In this document: positions 3,483-29,984 of the stretch, one piece after another
Position numbering within the stretch: the stretch's first letter is position 1
Layout of the letters: every line of letters starts with the position of its first letter
DNA from: Pseudomonas aeruginosa
GTDB lineage: Bacteria > Pseudomonadota > Gammaproteobacteria > Pseudomonadales > Pseudomonadaceae
Direction: 5' to 3'
NCBI RefSeq assembly: GCF_001457615.1
Contig: NZ_LN831024.1
Location: 510,001-542,000, forward strand
Length of the DNA stretch: 32,000 nt
Notes under the pieces: generated by a model
The model's input: only the letters and a program-made list of their open reading frames with translations
The model's database searches: none
What the model was told of the DNA's origin: nothing
Position numbers and translations under genes: made by a program

Positions 3483-4906
3483 TGCCGCTCGGCGTTCGGA
3501 TCTTCCTGGTCTACTTCCTGTTCGTCGGTCTCACCGGCTACTTCGTGCTGAGCACGGTGATGGACGAAGTGCGCCCCGGCGTGCGCCAGTCCACCGAGGA
3601 AACCCTGGTGGACACCGCCAACCTGCTCGCCGAGATCCTCCGCCAGGACGTGAAGAACGGCACCCTGGCACAGAGCGACCTGCCGGAGATGCTCGAGGAC
3701 TACGGCAAGCGCGTGCCGCAGGCGGATATCTGGGGCTTGCGCAAGGAGGCGGTGAACCACCGCATCTACGTCACCGACGCCAGCGGCAAGGTGCTGCTGG
3801 ACTCCGCCGGGGTGGCTGTCGGCCAGGACTATTCGCGCTGGAACGACGTCTACCTGACTCTCCGGGGCCAGTACGGCGCGCGCTCCAGCCGCGAAGACCC
3901 GGACGACCCGGATTCCTCGGTGATGTACGTGGCGGCGCCGATCAAGGATGGCGGGAAGATCATCGGGGTGGTTTCGGTGGCCAAGCCGAACAGCAGCCTG
4001 CAACCCTACATCGACCGCTCGCAGCGGCGCCTGGCCTGGCTCGGTGCCGGGCTGATCGCCCTCGGGCTGCTGGTCGGCGGCCTGCTCTCCTGGTGGCTCA
4101 GCGGCGCGCTGCGGCGCCTCACCCAGTACGCACAGGCGGTCAGCGAGGGGCGCCGCGCCGAGCTGCCGCGCTATCGCGGCGGCGAGATGGCGCAACTGGC
4201 CGACGCGGTGGAACGCATGCGCACGCAACTGGAAGGCAAGGACTACGTCGAGCGCTACGTGCATACCCTGACCCACGAACTGAAGAGCCCATTGGCGGCG
4301 ATCCGTGGCGCCGCCGAGTTGCTCGACGGCGAGATGCCGGCCGAGCAGCGGGCGCGCTTCGTCGGCAACATCGCCGGCGAGAGCGAGCGCCTGCAACAAC
4401 TGATCGAGCGCCTGCTGAGCCTGGCCCAGGTGGAGCAGCGGCAAGGCCTGGAGGAGGTCGGCAAGGTCGACCTGCGGGAGATCGCCGCGTCCCTGCTGGA
4501 AGGCCAGGCGGCGCGTATCCAGCGCCAGCGATTGCGGGTGGAGAACCGCCTGGAAGGTCCCTGCGAGGTTCGCGGCGAGCAGTTCCTGCTGCGCCAGGCG
4601 CTGGCCAACCTGCTCGACAACGCCCTCGACTTCACCCCGCCCGGCGGCATCCTTCGCCTGCTCGCCGAGGTCGACGGCGAGGGTATCGCCTTGCGCCTGT
4701 TCAACCAGGGGCCGGCGATTCCCGACTACGCCCTGGCGCGCCTCACCGAACGCTTCTACTCGCTGCCGCGCCCGGCCAGCGGGCGCAAGAGCACCGGGCT
4801 GGGACTGAACTTCGTCGCCGAGGTGGCGCAACTGCATGGCGGCCGGTTGCAGGTCGGCAACCGCGACGACGGCGTCGAGGCGCTGCTCTGGCTGCCGCGC
4901 GGCTGA
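3482..4906 (+). CDS. creC: Sensor histidine kinase CreC
   Basis: 474 aa. N-terminal TM segment, periplasmic domain, second TM segment, H-box HELKSPLAAIRGAAELL, and N/G boxes (LLDNALDFTP, GLGLNFV). Translationally coupled to creB. Confidence 0.9.
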   Translation: MPLGVRIFLVYFLFVGLTGYFVLSTVMDEVRPGVRQSTEETLVDTANLLAEILRQDVKNGTLAQSDLPEMLEDYGKRVPQADIWGLRKEAVNHRIYVTDASGKVLLDSAGVAVGQDYSRWNDVYLTLRGQYGARSSREDPDDPDSSVMYVAAPIKDGGKIIGVVSVAKPNSSLQPYIDRSQRRLAWLGAGLIALGLLVGGLLSWWLSGALRRLTQYAQAVSEGRRAELPRYRGGEMAQLADAVERMRTQLEGKDYVERYVHTLTHELKSPLAAIRGAAELLDGEMPAEQRARFVGNIAGESERLQQLIERLLSLAQVEQRQGLEEVGKVDLREIAASLLEGQAARIQRQRLRVENRLEGPCEVRGEQFLLRQALANLLDNALDFTPPGGILRLLAEVDGEGIALRLFNQGPAIPDYALARLTERFYSLPRPASGRKSTGLGLNFVAEVAQLHGGRLQVGNRDDGVEALLWLPRG

Positions 4907-24636: not shown

Positions 24637-25152
24637 ATGGATCACCTGGTCCTGACCGTGATCGCCACCGACCATCCCGGCCTGGTCGAGCGCATCGCCC
24701 AATGCATCGCCTCCCACGGCGGCAACTGGCTGGAAAGCCGCATGTCGCGGATGGCCGGGCAGTTCGCCGGGATACTGCGGGTGGCCGTGCCGGCGGAAGG
24801 CTACGACGAACTGGTGGAAGGGCTACAGGGCCTGTCCAGCCACGGTATCCGCGTGCTCCTGGCGGAAAGCGGGATCGAGCCGGTATGCAACTGGAAGCCT
24901 ATCCACCTCGACCTGGTGGGCAACGACCGCCCCGGTATCGTGCGCGACATCACCCGGCTGCTGGCCGAGCACGGGGTGAACCTGGAGAGCCTGTCCACCG
25001 AAGTGCGCCCGGCGCCGATGAGCAGCGAACCGCTGTTCCATGCCGATGCGCTGCTGGCGGTGCCGCTGACCCTGTCGCTGGACACCCTGCGCGAGCGACT
25101 GGAAGACCTGGCCGACGACCTGATGGTGGAGTTGGTGCTGGACGCGTCCTGA
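24637..25152 (+). CDS. ACT-domain protein, GcvR-like (glycine cleavage system regulator family)
   Basis: 171 aa. GGAGG RBS 24625-24629. Two ACT-like halves: LVLTVIATDHPGLVERIAQCIASHGGNWLESRM and HLDLVGNDRPGIVRDITRLLAEHGVNLESL. Confidence 0.75.
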   Translation: MDHLVLTVIATDHPGLVERIAQCIASHGGNWLESRMSRMAGQFAGILRVAVPAEGYDELVEGLQGLSSHGIRVLLAESGIEPVCNWKPIHLDLVGNDRPGIVRDITRLLAEHGVNLESLSTEVRPAPMSSEPLFHADALLAVPLTLSLDTLRERLEDLADDLMVELVLDAS

Positions 25153-25177
25153 AGTTGTTCAGGAAAGCCGGGGACGG

Positions 25178-25751
25178 GCCTGTGGAAAAGCCTTGGGTGA
25201 AACCCTGAAGCCCAGGCGCCGCGAGGCTTGGAGGTCGTAGCGCGTTTTTTGACCAGCTGCGTTGCGGTTATTCCCAAACCAGGTGGACCAGCCTGTGGGT
25301 ATTCTGTGTGGATAACCTTGCAGGCCTCTATCCATGGGCGATACAAGGGTTTGATCGTTTTCTGAGCAGCCTCTCTTGCGCTTTTGCTTGTGGATTAACC
25401 TTCGCCGCTATCGTTGCCCCTGTGCACAAATAACGTGGAGCAGTCTGTGGGTAAGCCGGGGAAAAATCCATGAAGGCCTTTATTCATCGGTATTACAGGT
25501 ATCCGTACGTTTTTTGATCGATGGCTTTTCCGGTTCATCCACAGTTGCTCACAAAAGCCTTGGGCAGATTTGTGGATAAGCCTTGTGTATATCGTTGTAA
25601 CCCTTGGTAAGCCTTGCATGCAGCGGTATGCTCAAAGACTGATCAGGCGCTTTGCAGGGCCTCTTCCGAAGAGTTATCCACGTGCCTGCGGAGAGGAGAA
25701 GGCAGGTATATGCACAAAGTGCGTGCATGATCCTGTGGAAAAGCCTGGGGT
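25178..25751. other. Cluster of DnaA-box-like 9-mers in a long AT-enriched non-coding region
   Basis: Perfect TTATCCACA (seen as TGTGGATAA on the + strand) at 25307-25315 and 25571-25579. One-mismatch boxes: 25181-25189 and 25734-25742 (TTTTCCACA), 25389-25397 (TAATCCACA), 25446-25454 (TTACCCACA), 25535-25543 (TCATCCACA, + orientation) and 25674-25682 (TTATCCACG, + orientation). Weaker sites at 25294, 25421 and 25708. Confidence 0.75.
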
Positions 25752-25805
25752 GGATCGCTGAGCGTCAGTATTGGCGGGGGATAGGAAGGAGTGCGTGTTT
25801 TTTCG

Positions 25806-25833
25806 CCAGGCTTGCGGAGTTCCGCAAGCCTGG
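25806..25833. other. Perfect 13-bp-arm inverted repeat 8 nt downstream of the rarD stop
   Basis: CCAGGCTTGCGGA GT TCCGCAAGCCTGG. The T6 run lies on the wrong side for a canonical rarD terminator: an A-run follows the hairpin on the rarD strand. Confidence 0.35.
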
Positions 25834-25841
25834 GGATAACG

Positions 25842-26738
25842 TCAGCCCGGCTGGGGAAGGCGGCGCAGGCTGCGCCAGGCGTCGAAGCTGTAGACGGCCA
25901 GGGCGAGCCAGATGAAAGCGAAGGCGGTCAGGCGGCTGGAGTCCAGATGCTCGCCGAACAGCAGGATCGCCTGTAGCAGGACCAGCGTCGGCGCCAGGTA
26001 TTGCAGGAAGCCCAGGGTGGCGTAGGGCAGGTGCCTTGCCGCAGCGTTGAAGCAGACCAGCGGAACCAGCGTCACCGGGCCCGCGGCGACCACCCACAGG
26101 GCTTCCGGGGTGCTCCAGAAAGCCGTTTCGCTGGTCGGCCCGTCGGCGAAAAACAGCAACCAGACCAGCGCCAGCGGCAGCAGCAGCCAGGTTTCCACCA
26201 CCAGTCCGGGCAGCGCGGCGACCGGCGCCTTTTTGCGGATCAGGCCGTAGAAGCCGAAGGTCAGGGCCAGCACCAGCGACACCCAAGGCAGGCTGCCGAG
26301 TTGCCAGACCTGCTGCGCCACGCCCAGCGAAGCCAGGGCTACCGCCAGCCATTGCAGGGGACGCAGGCGTTCCTTGAGCAGCAACATGCCGAGCATCACG
26401 TTGATCAGCGGATTGATGTAGTAGCCCAGGCTGGCTTCCAGCATGTGGCCGTTGTTCACCGCCCAGACATAGGTCATCCAGTTGCTGGCGATCAGCAGTC
26501 CGCTGGCGGCCAGCACGACGAAGCGCTGCGGATTCTGGCGTAGCTCGCGCCACCAGCCCGGGTGCTTCCAGAACAGCAGCAGGACGGCGCCGAACAGGGC
26601 CGACCAGACCGCGCGCTGTACGATGATTTCCACCGCGGGAATGCGTTCGAGCAGTTTGAAGTAGAGCGGGAACAGTCCCCAGATCACATAAGCCGTCAGG
26701 CCGAGGACATAGCCCCGACGGAGGTTGGCGGTCGCCAT
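25842..26738 (-). CDS. rarD: EamA/DMT-family transporter RarD
   Basis: 298 aa. MATANLRRGYVLGLTAYVIWGLFPLYFKLL, with 10 predicted TM segments typical of RarD. Confidence 0.85.
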   Translation of the reverse strand: MATANLRRGYVLGLTAYVIWGLFPLYFKLLERIPAVEIIVQRAVWSALFGAVLLLFWKHPGWWRELRQNPQRFVVLAASGLLIASNWMTYVWAVNNGHMLEASLGYYINPLINVMLGMLLLKERLRPLQWLAVALASLGVAQQVWQLGSLPWVSLVLALTFGFYGLIRKKAPVAALPGLVVETWLLLPLALVWLLFFADGPTSETAFWSTPEALWVVAAGPVTLVPLVCFNAAARHLPYATLGFLQYLAPTLVLLQAILLFGEHLDSSRLTAFAFIWLALAVYSFDAWRSLRRLPQPG

Positions 26739-26940: not shown

Positions 26941-27915
26941 TCAGAACAGCCGCAGCGGTTCCTCGTCCAGCGCCGCCAGTTGTTCGCGCAGCACCAGCAC
27001 CTGCTCGCCCCAGTAACGTTCGCTGCCGAACCAGGGGAAGCTCGGCGGGAACGCCGGGTCGTCCCAGCGCCGCGCGAGCCAGGCGCTGTAGTGCATCAGG
27101 CGGAGGCTGCGCAGGCCTTCGAGCAGCGGTAGCTGGCGCGGCTCGAAGTCGTGGAACTCGTTGTAGCCGTCGACCAGTTCGGCAATCTGCGCCAGGCGTT
27201 CGTGGCGCTCGCCGGCGAGCATCATCCACAGGTCCTGGAGGGCCGGGCCCATGCGGCAGTCGTCGAGATCGACCATGTGGTAGACCTCGTCGCGGCACAG
27301 CAGGTTGCCCGGATGGCAGTCGCCGTGCAGGCGGATCGGCTGGTAGGGCACCTCGGCGAACAGGGCGTCGAGGCGTTTCAGCAGGTCGCGGGCGACCGAC
27401 TCGTAGGCCGGCAGCAGGCTCCTGGGGATGAAATTGCCTTCCAGCAGGGTGGCCAGCGAGGCGTGGCCGAAGTTATCCACAGCGAGCGCCTCGCGGTGCT
27501 CGAACGGCCGCGTGGCGCCGACCGCGTGCAGGCGGCCGAGCAACTGGCCGAGGCGGTAGAGCTGGTCGAGATTGCCCGGCTCGGGCGCGCGCCCGCCGCG
27601 CCGGGGGAACAGGGCGAAGCGGAAGCCGGAGAATGCGAACAGGCTTTCGCCGTCGCGCGACAGCGGCGCCACCACCGGCACCTCGCATTCCGCCAGCTCG
27701 GCGGAGAAGGCGTGCTCCTCGCGGATCGCCGCGTCGCTCCAGCGGTCCGGTCGGTAGAACTTGGCGATCAGCGGCTCGCCGTCCTCGATGCCGACCTGGT
27801 ACACGCGGTTTTCGTAGCTGTTGAGCGCCAGCACCCGTGCGTCGCTGAGATAGCCGAGGCTTTCCACGGCATCCAGGACGAGGTCGGGGGTCAGTTGGTC
27901 GAAGGGATGGGACAT
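26941..27915 (-). CDS. srkA: Stress-response Ser/Thr kinase SrkA (YihE/RdoA family)
   Basis: 324 aa. Start ...LNSYENRVYQV.... Catalytic loop HGDCHPGNLL and metal-binding VDLDD. Confidence 0.85.
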   Translation of the reverse strand: MSHPFDQLTPDLVLDAVESLGYLSDARVLALNSYENRVYQVGIEDGEPLIAKFYRPDRWSDAAIREEHAFSAELAECEVPVVAPLSRDGESLFAFSGFRFALFPRRGGRAPEPGNLDQLYRLGQLLGRLHAVGATRPFEHREALAVDNFGHASLATLLEGNFIPRSLLPAYESVARDLLKRLDALFAEVPYQPIRLHGDCHPGNLLCRDEVYHMVDLDDCRMGPALQDLWMMLAGERHERLAQIAELVDGYNEFHDFEPRQLPLLEGLRSLRLMHYSAWLARRWDDPAFPPSFPWFGSERYWGEQVLVLREQLAALDEEPLRLF

Positions 27916-29975: not shown

Positions 29976-29984
29976 TGTGGATAA
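29976..29984 (-). promoter_or_regulatory. Isolated perfect DnaA box (TTATCCACA) upstream of the ComF-family gene
   Basis: TGTGGATAA on the + strand, 86 nt upstream of ATG 29890, flanked by the imperfect inverted repeat GGTTCGG...CCGAAACC. Confidence 0.5.

Follow-up and report, generated by a model that had tools for sequence, protein, structure and literature searches.

Off-origin control of the initiator DnaA by datA, DARS1 and DARS2 has been worked out nearly all in E. coli, and DARS-like sequences beyond the enterics exist in the searchable literature only as predictions (e.g. in Vibrio). Pseudomonas, to our knowledge, is without Dam and SeqA. P. aeruginosa possesses two origin-like regions (PMC13438810). 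An earlier note on the 32-kb stretch of P. aeruginosa DNA analyzed here (the window) described a cluster of DnaA boxes in a wide gap between two convergent genes and read it as a datA- or DARS-like locus. The gap raises the question whether it is a site of DnaA control and, if so, of which kind.

A DnaA-box array between the ACT-domain gene and rarD

In P. aeruginosa the gap spans 690 bp (25153-25841) between a PA0484-like, 'GcvR-like' ACT-domain gene (24637..25152, + strand), whose 3' end adjoins the first unit of the array, and the converging PA0485-like rarD, an EamA-family transporter gene (25842..26738, - strand). Both flanks were assigned from open reading frames and family matches, and the names PA0484/PA0485 follow PMC9736018. 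The previously reported stops of the ACT gene (25152) and of rarD (25842) were confirmed, and in line with the claim that the gap holds no credible ORF we found only short, unconserved ones. GC content is 53% in the gap compared with 67% in the window. The two lines counted earlier as 47% and 45% GC (25441-25500 and 25501-25560) recompute to 46.7% and 45.0%; the lowest local GC is 45% and the only A/T tracts are of 6 nt. The exact RarD protein occurs in more than 29,000 collection blocks, at ~0.54-0.55 Mb on chromosomes of 6.3-7.1 Mb. Assuming that assemblies begin at dnaA, as is the convention, the locus is origin-proximal, ~0.55 Mb or ~9% of the chromosome from oriC.

Allowing one mismatch, TTATCCACA matches 12 times in the window, nine of them inside 25181-25839, while 1.32 matches (sd 1.1) are expected by chance in the whole 32 kb and none of 100 shuffles reached 12. 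For all eight boxes of the earlier note the stated position and orientation are right, but a ninth had been overlooked at 25831-25839 (TTATCCCCA, - strand). Seven of the nine point the same way, reading TGTGGATAA on the + strand. The strict consensus TTWTNCACA, with 129 matches reported for the entire 6.3-Mb PAO1161 genome (PMC13438810), matches four times in the gap, a ~280-fold enrichment over that genome figure. With nine boxes at up to one mismatch, compared with five in P. aeruginosa oriC, this non-origin cluster is denser than oriC itself. The longer motif thought to be common to the boxes, TGTGGAWAAGCCTKGGG, is present in four of the nine (25181 and 25734 with no mismatch, 25571 with one and 25446 with three; 0.12 expected) and not in all. 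Similarly, the outermost copies (25178-25198 and 25731-25751) are direct repeats as described, with an identity of 19/21 instead of 20/21.

The flanks of this extended motif turn out to be extra weak boxes of fixed spacing and orientation that reproduce the core geometry of E. coli DARS (PMC6868365). Five units share one grammar, composed of a weak forward box I, 5 bp, a weak reverse box II, 3 bp, a strong reverse box III, 2 bp and a weak reverse box III', with an A6/T6 tract 62 bp downstream of box III. The grammar is specific to the gap: a scan of the window gave four matches, every one of them inside the gap and on the same strand (shuffles gave 0.01 each), and neither the oriC of P. aeruginosa nor that of a fluorescens-type species contains it.

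All five units lie on the + strand. Unit 1 (25155..25200), delineated by box decomposition, scores 17/27, marginally below the threshold of the grammar scan. Its box I TTGTTCAGG (25155-25163) is followed after 5 bp by II CGGGGACGG (25169-25177), after 3 bp by III TGTGGAAAA (25181-25189) and after 2 bp by III' CTTGGGTGA (25192-25200). A T6 tract on the + strand, CGTTTTTTGA (25243..25252; repeat families D3/D5), lies at the fixed offset of 62 bp past box III. Unit 2 (25268..25315) comprises I TTATTCCCA (25268-25276), II GGTGGACCA (25282-25290) and III TGTGGGTAT (25294-25302), the last 113 bp past box III of unit 1, and continues with a perfect box TGTGGATAA (25307-25315). The tract at 62 bp past its box III, CGTTTTCTGA (25356-25365), adjoins a candidate IHF site on the - strand, GATCAAACCCTTG (25344..25356), which matches WATCAANNNNTTR with one mismatch and is the sole IHF-consensus match in the window. 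A solitary DnaA box with one mismatch, TAATCCACA (25389..25397, - strand), is not flanked by the grammar.

Units 3 to 5 are of type B. Unit 3 (25420..25465) contains I CTGTGCACA (25420-25428), II CGTGGAGCA (25434-25442), III TGTGGGTAA (25446-25454) and III' CGGGGAAAA (25457-25465), and its T6 tract CGTTTTTTGA (25508..25517, + strand) again lies 62 bp past box III. In unit 4 (25535..25590) an additional forward box TCATCCACA (25535-25543) precedes I TTGCTCACA (25545-25553) by 1 bp; II CTTGGGCAG (25559-25567), a perfect III TGTGGATAA (25571-25579) and III' CTTGTGTAT (25582-25590) complete it. A forward box with one mismatch, TTATCCACG (25674..25682, + strand), falls within no unit. Unit 5 (25708..25753) consists of I ATATGCACA (25708-25716), II CGTGCATGA (25722-25730), III TGTGGAAAA (25734-25742) and III' CTGGGGTGG (25745-25753). 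The T6 tract 62 bp past its box III, TGTTTTTTCG, leads into a hairpin by the rarD stop (together 25796..25839) with 19-bp arms at 25800-25818 and 25821-25839 (inverted repeat I1, fold z = -3.1), and the ninth box-like 9-mer TGGGGATAA (25831-25839) forms the end of this hairpin.

Conservation and constraint of the core in Pseudomonas

The earlier note had proposed a comparison of the orthologous ACT-rarD gaps, and the boxes are indeed kept across the genus. The element occupies the same gap in ~70 of 77 species-level Pseudomonas genomes and 63 of 80 metagenome contigs, and its conservation at this one syntenic site is vertical. The neighboring ACT protein is 82-99% identical among its Pseudomonas homologs, and the element is retained even where this identity falls to 62-72%. 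Most species carry a single pair of cores, A and B, with only two strong boxes; the spacing from A to B is 112 bp in 68 cases and 113 bp in 39. Lineages differ in having zero to three A-B modules in tandem, with five units in P. aeruginosa, and the A6/T6 tract recurs at +62-64 of box III across Pseudomonas units. In 24 species of the fluorescens group the box blocks are invariant and the hairpin loops variable. The element is missing from the gap of the resinovorans group (46-116 bp) and of a few further lineages, which suggests that it is dispensable or relocated there. The same core also occurs in other genomic contexts, in metagenomes and beside unrelated genes in other bacteria, and one metagenomic family bears a second, canonical core outside the search pattern.

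An offset profile around 222 strong boxes from 77 orthologous gaps shows consensus similarity peaking at four offsets: -26 forward (5.64/9), -12 reverse (4.56/9), 0 (8.51/9) and +11 reverse (4.21/9), over a background of ~2. The corresponding start-to-start distances between boxes are 14 and 12 bp. An alternative register, with the strong box taken as the equivalent of E. coli box II, was rejected, because the -14 offset that it requires has less forward similarity (0.76/9) than any other offset.

Box III shows a DnaA-like pattern of constraint. The 83 substitutions that it shows over 161 distinct units are confined to positions 1, 3, 4 and 5 of TTATCCACA, with none at positions 2 or 6-9, which mirrors the DnaA consensus TT(A/T)TNCACA and its high-GC variant TTGTCCACA (PMC4285127). 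Since site II (CGGGGATNN; 4-7/9 matches) departs from the consensus at exactly the positions that are invariant in box III, its putative identity as a DnaA site comes from its position and orientation alone.

In most species an A6 tract and then an IHF-like 13-mer precede core B, the latter at -36 with a mean of 6.2/9 compared with a background of 2.6, and perfect in some. P. aeruginosa has no IHF consensus at this position; its single match, with one mismatch, lies at a different place and in the opposite orientation.

A putative DnaA-assembly locus and competing readings

We give about an even chance to the prediction that the gap is a cis-acting DnaA-assembly locus built from repeated DARS-core-like units. 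Its parts differ in strength: DnaA very probably occupies the array, the locus probably affects DnaA activity, and the chance that it does so in the reactivating, DARS-like sense is close to even. The datA/DARS-like reading of the earlier note is supported in that every prediction accessible to computation held, and for a hitherto undescribed locus of replication control in Pseudomonas the array is a strong candidate. The searchable literature contains no DnaA ChIP, footprint or deletion phenotype for the array, nor does it connect any DnaA-box cluster of Pseudomonas with PA0484/PA0485, rarD, DARS or datA.

Stepwise assembly would begin with binding of DnaA to the near-consensus box III of each unit. 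Further protomers would then be recruited head-to-tail onto the weak, co-oriented II and III', and finally box I, which faces the other way at 5 bp from II, would take up a single protomer head-to-head. At E. coli DARS1 and DARS2 it is this arrangement that frees DnaA of ADP, and initiation-competent ATP-DnaA is thereby regenerated. In most Pseudomonas the assembly would take place on the dimorphic A/B core pair, 112-113 bp apart, with the A-tract and IHF-like site in between. Given this DARS-core-like arrangement, the locus, ~0.55 Mb distant from oriC, would determine how much active DnaA there is or when it is available. As most species keep only two strong boxes, a catalytic role may fit better than a titrating one.

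Two features argue against a mechanism identical to that of E. coli: the strongest box is III instead of II, and Pseudomonas DnaA lacks a residue on which DARS depends in E. coli. In each of the 118 Pseudomonas DnaA sequences examined that contain the motif, it reads ERFVADMVKAL, with Ala at the position of Gln208 (Ala255 in P. aeruginosa); F239, K243 and L290 are conserved. In E. coli DnaA, Q208A abolishes DARS-dependent ADP release (PMC6868365).

A datA-like negative element is possible but unlikely. Here an IHF-aided array would stimulate ATP-DnaA hydrolysis, or titrate DnaA, after its duplication early in S phase, restraining re-initiation. This would suit an origin-proximal cluster of high-affinity boxes ~0.55 Mb from oriC that has expanded to nine boxes in P. 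aeruginosa and, in most species, carries an IHF-like site between its strong boxes; moreover, the missing Gln208 equivalent speaks against DARS chemistry and not against datA chemistry. However, all units have the I-5-II-3-III core, to which E. coli datA shows zero matches, two strong boxes as in most species make for poor titration capacity, and a head-to-head box pair is the hallmark of DARS (PMC6868365).

We regard as decidedly unlikely a mechanistically distinct switch of the Pseudomonadaceae, in which paired DARS-type cores around an IHF bend would work with a Gln208-less DnaA, either exchanging nucleotide through another interface or toggling between DARS and datA modes as set by IHF, and would serve as the main off-origin timer of initiation.

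It is improbable that the units act on RNA or transcription, be it as 3'-UTR or small-RNA modules (GGA-rich and possibly protein-binding), as tandem terminators or as a DnaA roadblock or regulator for the converging transcripts. Strand asymmetry is strong, with all units in one direction and GGA 2- to 7-fold more frequent than TCC on the + strand, and cores are followed by GC hairpins and then T-rich stretches. Core A, between the ACT-gene stop and a terminator-like hairpin, is probably part of that gene's 3' UTR, and the changes in hairpin B (fold z = -3.4), which are compensatory or of G.U type, are compatible with the + strand alone; from the placement of core A and these changes, some selection acts at the RNA level in the gap. 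On the other hand, the most conserved blocks do not covary: RNAalifold on 24 fluorescens-group gaps gave a covariation term of ~0, with compensatory pairs only in hairpin B, and the long-range pairing TGATCAAAAAAC/GTTTTTTGATCA is conserved in them without covariation. In type A the I/II inverted repeat has frequently given way to the DnaA consensus (CGTGGAT facing ATATCCCCG), type B has no I/II pairing at all, and the substitution spectrum of box III fits DnaA recognition. Stable hairpins do not precede the T6 tracts of P. aeruginosa (four of its five unit tails have z between -1.0 and +0.6), and folding of the unit tails is no better than in shuffles except for the rarD-side hairpin.

Searches for known RNA and promoter signals agree with this. 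The Rfam 15 covariance models gave no match in the window at gathering score, and at E values up to 10 only chance-level eukaryotic families in the gap (microRNA precursors, MAT2A 3'-UTR stem-loops). Scans for sigma-70 promoters in P. aeruginosa, a fluorescens-type locus and Pseudomonas sp. 8AS detected none, and intrinsic terminators were at or below chance; inspection by eye for sigma-54, sigma-28 and RpoH promoters near the boxes revealed nothing convincing. The suggestion of a DnaA-controlled promoter for a small RNA thus finds no support, with neither a sigma-70-like promoter nor an Rfam family detected.

An array for other proteins, for example a GntR-type regulator on the TTGTGCACAA palindrome and another factor on the GGGGAT repeats, with an incidental likeness to DnaA boxes, is very improbable. 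In its favor, type-B box I forms a perfect palindrome of 10 bp, site II departs from the DnaA consensus at positions that are invariant elsewhere, and PA3973, an unrelated TetR regulator, has a ChIP-seq peak in the gap (PMC9736018). Against this, the best-conserved element is the canonical TTATCCACA, which varies only at positions tolerated by DnaA, and the I-II-III arrangement is seen again in E. coli DARS and, in other bacteria, next to unrelated genes.

Finally, a relic or latent secondary origin or an iteron-type plasmid replicon, the former of which could recall the dense boxes with A/T tracts and the second ARS-like cluster oriCII of P. aeruginosa (PMC13438810) and the latter of which had been proposed as a plasmid relic, is hardly credible, given no similarity among 72,556 plasmids or 50,697 phage records by BLAST, no core pattern in viral contigs, no adjacent rep gene, no AT-rich unwinding region (GC at least 45% throughout), a box grammar unlike that of oriC and vertical conservation at one syntenic site.

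Comparison with origins, datA and DARS

The same P. aeruginosa genome contains the DnaA-box clusters oriCI, at rpmH-dnaA, and oriCII, upstream of gidA. The ACT-rarD array lies elsewhere, as the earlier note had correctly placed oriC outside this neighborhood, and the position of oriCII excludes identity with this published second origin. DnaA binds the TTWTNCACA boxes of oriCII in EMSA, and oriCII is a promoter-upstream activator (PMC13438810). The boxes of oriCI do not follow the I-5-II-3-III grammar, and the array has neither the AT-rich unwinding element of an origin, its lowest GC being 45%, nor the box layout of oriC. The DnaA-box clusters (DBCs) of Bacillus subtilis are conserved, intergenic, near the origin and modulate initiation, as cited in PMC13438810. 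They come from a different phylum and are likened to the Pseudomonas element by description only. As far as we know, only plain clustering is described for them, and no DARS-type grammar.

With datA the array shares origin-proximal, high-affinity boxes within ~1 kb, namely nine boxes at up to one mismatch in 690 bp at ~0.54-0.55 Mb. The distance of datA from oriC in E. coli is comparable to ~0.55 Mb. IHF is required by datA; in most Pseudomonas species an IHF-like site lies between core A's strong box and core B's, although none is clear in P. aeruginosa. In contrast to datA, which has several high-affinity boxes and no head-to-head I/II core, most species have two strong boxes only and all units possess the core.

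The closest likeness in arrangement is to DARS, where boxes I and II are opposed across a 5-bp space, II and III share a direction and spacings are strongly conserved (PMC6868365). In MG1655 the cores read TTATCCACT-5-TGTGGATAA-3-TGTGTATTA for DARS1 and TTATTCACC-5-TGTGGATAG-3-TGTGAAGAA for DARS2, and the Pseudomonas units match the orientation and the 5-bp and 3-bp spacings of I-II-III exactly. Five units in the window and 161 in relatives have three boxes within ~35 bp outside oriC. The opposition of I and II is seen in the offset profile, where the only forward peak is at -26 and the reverse peak is at -12, and the start distance of 12 bp between the co-oriented II and III is the same in Pseudomonas, DARS1 and DARS2. 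DARS elements are likewise non-coding and located away from oriC, and an additional co-oriented III' site is present. DARS2 has an IHF/Fis region by its core, and most Pseudomonas species have a candidate IHF site by theirs. DARS2 lies at mid-replichore in E. coli; the origin-proximal Pseudomonas locus is in this respect closer to datA.

Unlike DARS, the Pseudomonas cores form dimorphic A/B pairs with a constant spacing of 112-113 bp, in one to three tandem modules and with the A6/T6 tract at +62-64, and they sit in the convergent ACT-rarD gap instead of at the uvrB or mutH promoters. The near-consensus box also differs: box II of DARS1 is perfect and strongest (PMC6868365), whereas in Pseudomonas III averages 8.5/9 and II 4.6/9. 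A defined cis element of 215-690 bp with predictions at the level of single boxes makes the regeneration or limitation of DnaA a testable question in P. aeruginosa, P. putida and P. fluorescens, and the zero to three A-B modules across lineages form a natural dosage series. The change of Gln208 to Ala in DnaA and the shift of the consensus box from II to III are natural differences from E. coli that would show which features of DARS are essential.

A DnaA-box grammar specific to the PA0484-PA0485 gap

The converging genes PA0484 (ACT-domain protein, 24637-25152, plus strand) and PA0485 (the EamA transporter RarD, 25842-26738, minus strand), named according to PMC9736018, leave a gap of 689 bp (25153-25841) that contains no credible ORF and has a GC content of 53% compared with 67% for the window. 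An identical RarD is present in more than 29,000 collection blocks, on chromosomes of 6.3-7.1 Mb and at ~0.54-0.55 Mb. Allowing up to one mismatch, the DnaA box TTATCCACA matches 12 times in the window, with 1.3 matches expected in 32 kb, and nine of the 12 lie within 25181-25839. Four boxes in the gap satisfy the strict consensus TTWTNCACA, for which 129 sites are reported across the whole PAO1161 genome (PMC13438810). On recount all eight boxes of the earlier note were right, while a ninth at 25831, a box-like hairpin end, had been overlooked; the extended motif said to be shared by the boxes holds for four of them and not for the others, and the outer direct repeats agree at 19 of 21 positions rather than 20. 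Outside the gap, the window holds two perfect boxes (27473-27481, plus strand; 29976-29984, minus strand) and one with a single mismatch (27222-27230, plus strand). Those at 27222 and 27473 are inside an SrkA-like kinase gene (26941-27915), and flanking grammar is absent from all three.

This grammar emerged when all strong reverse boxes of the window (TGTGGATAA on the plus strand) were aligned with those of 76 orthologous gaps. Resemblance to the DnaA-box consensus stays at background (~2/9) at all offsets but four, namely site I at -26 (forward, mean 5.64/9 matches), site II at -12 (reverse, 4.56/9), the anchor site III at 0 (reverse, 8.51/9) and site III' at +11 (reverse, 4.21/9). The four peaks therefore define a unit of I>, 5 bp, II<, 3 bp, III<, 2 bp, III'<, where > is forward and < reverse. 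Five units are found in the window, with box III at 25181, 25294, 25446, 25571 and 25734, and four extra boxes lie in the gap at 25307, 25389, 25535 and 25674. Scanning the 32-kb window for the grammar, with minimum scores of 5 for I, 4 for II and 7 for III and a minimum sum of 18/27, yielded four matches, all in the gap and all on the plus strand, compared with 0.01 for each dinucleotide shuffle. In four of the five P. aeruginosa units, box III is followed exactly 62 bp on by a T6 tract, either CGTTTTTTGA or a sequence close to it. Good boxes number 5-7 in the rpmH-dnaA origin regions of P. aeruginosa and one fluorescens-type species, and none of them shows the grammar, which is therefore not general to Pseudomonas DnaA boxes. 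The locus is not the published second origin oriCII, which lies elsewhere, upstream of gidA.

Deep conservation and DnaA-like constraint

ACT-gap-rarD synteny is kept in 76 of 80 species-level loci retrieved with the ACT protein. Two kinds of core recur: in type A, box I is ATATCCCCG or TTATCCAGT, and in type B it is TTGTGCACA, within the palindrome TTGTGCACAA. The fluorescens group carries one A-B module with two perfect boxes in a gap of ~215 bp; alcaligenes, nitroreducens and other lineages have 2-3 modules in 570-880 bp; P. aeruginosa and P. paraeruginosa show a more diverged version with five units in ~690 bp; and the resinovorans group and a few others have no module in gaps of 46-156 bp. 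The earlier note had left conservation of the boxes to an alignment of orthologous gaps, and in 24 aligned fluorescens-group gaps the box blocks proved invariant, with variable hairpin loops and spacers. From an A core to the B core that follows, the distance is 112 bp in 68 cases and 113 bp in 39. Metagenome contigs were scanned for the exact pattern of the type-B core, which gave 80 stored loci, 63 in the ACT-rarD context; some of their ACT proteins are only 62-72% identical, and these lineages keep the A-B module at the same spacing, a few loci having core B only. L057 and L070 have core A only. No DnaA boxes follow the ACT gene in L031, L032, L034 and L035 (resinovorans group) or in L038, L041 and L048, where the element is lost or relocated; ACT-rarD synteny is retained in all of these except L041, which retains the ACT gene without it. 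Two records are probable contaminants or mislabeled: L016, a 480-bp contig filed as Christiangramia aestuarii that matches the ACT protein of P. aeruginosa at 100% identity, and L057, a 146-kb contig filed as Gordonia sp. that bears a fluorescens-type Pseudomonas locus.

Box III varies as a DnaA box does. It is TTATCCACA in 89 of 161 distinct units, and the 83 deviations are confined to positions 1, 3, 4 and 5, with none at 2 or 6-9, under a selection rule that permitted mismatches at any position. The consensus TT(A/T)TNCACA is degenerate at positions 3 and 5, and G at position 3 gives the high-GC box TTGTCCACA (PMC4285127). Sites I and II of type A form an inverted repeat that is often broken towards the DnaA consensus (CGTGGAT opposite ATATCCCCG), and type B has no I/II pairing; what the two types have in common is therefore their box layout, not an RNA stem.

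In most species core B is preceded by an A6 tract and, ~7 bp on, by a 13-mer resembling the IHF consensus WATCAANNNNTTR (offset -36, mean 6.2/9 against a background of 2.6), in some species a perfect IHF-type TATCAAGGGCTTG whose final bases overlap box I. P. aeruginosa has no IHF-like site at this position; the sole one-mismatch IHF match of the whole window lies within the gap at 25344-25356 (minus strand). Type A cores are followed by A6 at +63, type B cores by T6 at +64, and both by GC-rich hairpins. The fold of the core-B hairpin (z = -3.4) and its compensatory and G.U-type changes, which fit the plus strand only, mark it as a probable plus-strand terminator. Another hairpin (25800-25839) abuts the rarD stop, with near-perfect 19-bp arms (z = -3.1), a T6 run ahead on the plus strand and a terminal TGGGGATAA. 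Neither strand carries a U-tract, and the hairpin may terminate transcription in a non-canonical way. Core B of the fluorescens group is flanked by TGATCAAAAAAC and, ~105 bp away, the exact inverse of that sequence, GTTTTTTGATCA (4609-4620 and 4726-4737 in locus L069; columns 119-131 and 238-250 of alignment A1). They are invariant in 24 species without covariation, and the rarD stop codon lies partly within the second. Instead of forming an RNA stem, they may serve as bend sites or bind a protein.

Proposed action on DnaA and alternative readings

P. aeruginosa DnaA binds TTWTNCACA boxes in EMSA (PMC13438810), and judging from its sequence the locus is very probably occupied by DnaA. We propose that DnaA would nucleate on box III, spread head-to-tail onto II and III' and meet a protomer on box I head-to-head, and that the assembled complex would alter the DnaA nucleotide state. 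In most species this step would be gated by the fixed 112-113-bp phasing of cores A and B and by IHF bending the DNA that separates them. Since most species have two strong boxes only, a catalytic role is more plausible than titration. An effect of the locus on DnaA activity or initiation appears likely, and the chance that this effect is DARS-like reactivation is close to even at best. A datA-like effect is unlikely, and the grammar scan found no match in E. coli datA. Like datA, the locus is origin-proximal, which counts against the DARS-like reading.

The gap elements may act at the RNA level, as could be read from a strand asymmetry (GGA over TCC 2- to 7-fold), the placement of core A within what is probably a 3' UTR and the hairpins that resemble terminators; however, there is no Rfam match, the promoter search of the gap was empty, the conserved blocks show no covariation and the tails of the P. 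aeruginosa units do not fold stably. It is conceivable that another DNA-binding protein recognizes, for example, the palindrome TTGTGCACAA, but this leaves unexplained why the I-II-III layout recurs beside unrelated genes in other bacteria. A ChIP-seq peak of the TetR-family protein PA3973 (5.1-fold) lies between PA0484 and PA0485 at PAO1161 coordinate 546,136 (PMC9736018); a region that is rich in bound protein generally, or one that precipitates easily, could account for it. The relic of a plasmid-type replicon raised in the earlier note finds no support, as no plasmid or phage similarity of the gap was found; the core pattern is also absent from viral contigs.

Comparison with E. coli DARS and similar cores

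Direct reading of E. coli MG1655 gives TTATCCACT-attcc-TGTGGATAA-cca-TGTGTATTA for DARS1 and TTATTCACC-ttttc-TGTGGATAG-agt-TGTGAAGAA for DARS2. Their boxes I, II and III have the orientation and spacing of the Pseudomonas units, and the grammar scan finds exactly one match in each. The essential DARS core consists of three boxes, box II of DARS1 being a perfect consensus, and its hallmark is the opposed box I/II pair, whose bound protomers release ADP (PMC6868365). A third E. coli site with this layout, TTATCCCAG-5-TGTGGATAA-3-GGTGTAAGA, lies upstream of mutH (2969451-2969485; 952-986 of retrieved locus L088), ~300 bp from the DARS2 core and just under the scoring threshold of the scan.

Three differences speak against identity with DARS. 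The consensus box is III in Pseudomonas but II in E. coli DARS1; Pseudomonas site II is off-consensus at positions invariant in box III; and Pseudomonas DnaA has Ala in place of E. coli Gln208, where the substitution Q208A causes a specific defect in DARS-dependent ADP release (PMC6868365). A further point against it is that the gap of the resinovorans group lacks the element. The motif reads ERFVADMVKAL in 118/118 Pseudomonas proteins that have it (among P0121-P0240), the Ala being residue 255 in P. aeruginosa (P0123), and F239, K243, L290, R285 and R334 are conserved. A register equating the strong Pseudomonas box with E. coli box II was rejected, as the required offset has the lowest forward-box similarity of all.

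Similar cores occur in metagenome contigs. In L106, L124, L130, L144, L152 and L171 (43-60% GC), TTGCGCACA-5-TGTGGATAA-3-TGTGGAAAA lies upstream of a divergent priA and is flanked on its far side by a fructosamine-kinase gene. Except in L171, a second, independent canonical core that was not in the search pattern (forward 8/9, 5 bp, reverse 9/9, 3 bp, reverse 8/9) is present ~314 bp further upstream, and the pair looks like a double DARS-type locus of another gammaproteobacterial lineage. Single cores TTGTGCACA-5-CGTGGATGA-3-TGTGGATAA are found in the promoter region between divergent RlmF-like RNA methyltransferase and ThiF-family genes, and further cores upstream of a gene for a 2-hydroxyacid dehydrogenase and beside one for a beta-eliminating lyase (loci for these contexts: L109, L132, L156, L157, L162, L164; L117/L151/L167, L134, L135). 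L117, L151 and L167 also have a perfect IHF consensus (TATCAATCAGTTA) and more boxes 150-300 bp off.

Fujimitsu et al. 2009 reportedly predicted DARS candidates "in various bacterial species", and one from Pseudomonas may be among them; the literature searched describes neither the locus nor a Pseudomonas equivalent of DARS or datA. DARS-like sequences are mentioned for Vibrio cholerae (PMC6090056). Here the core grammar of DARS takes on a modular architecture and a genomic context that are both new, and it departs from E. coli in two defining features.
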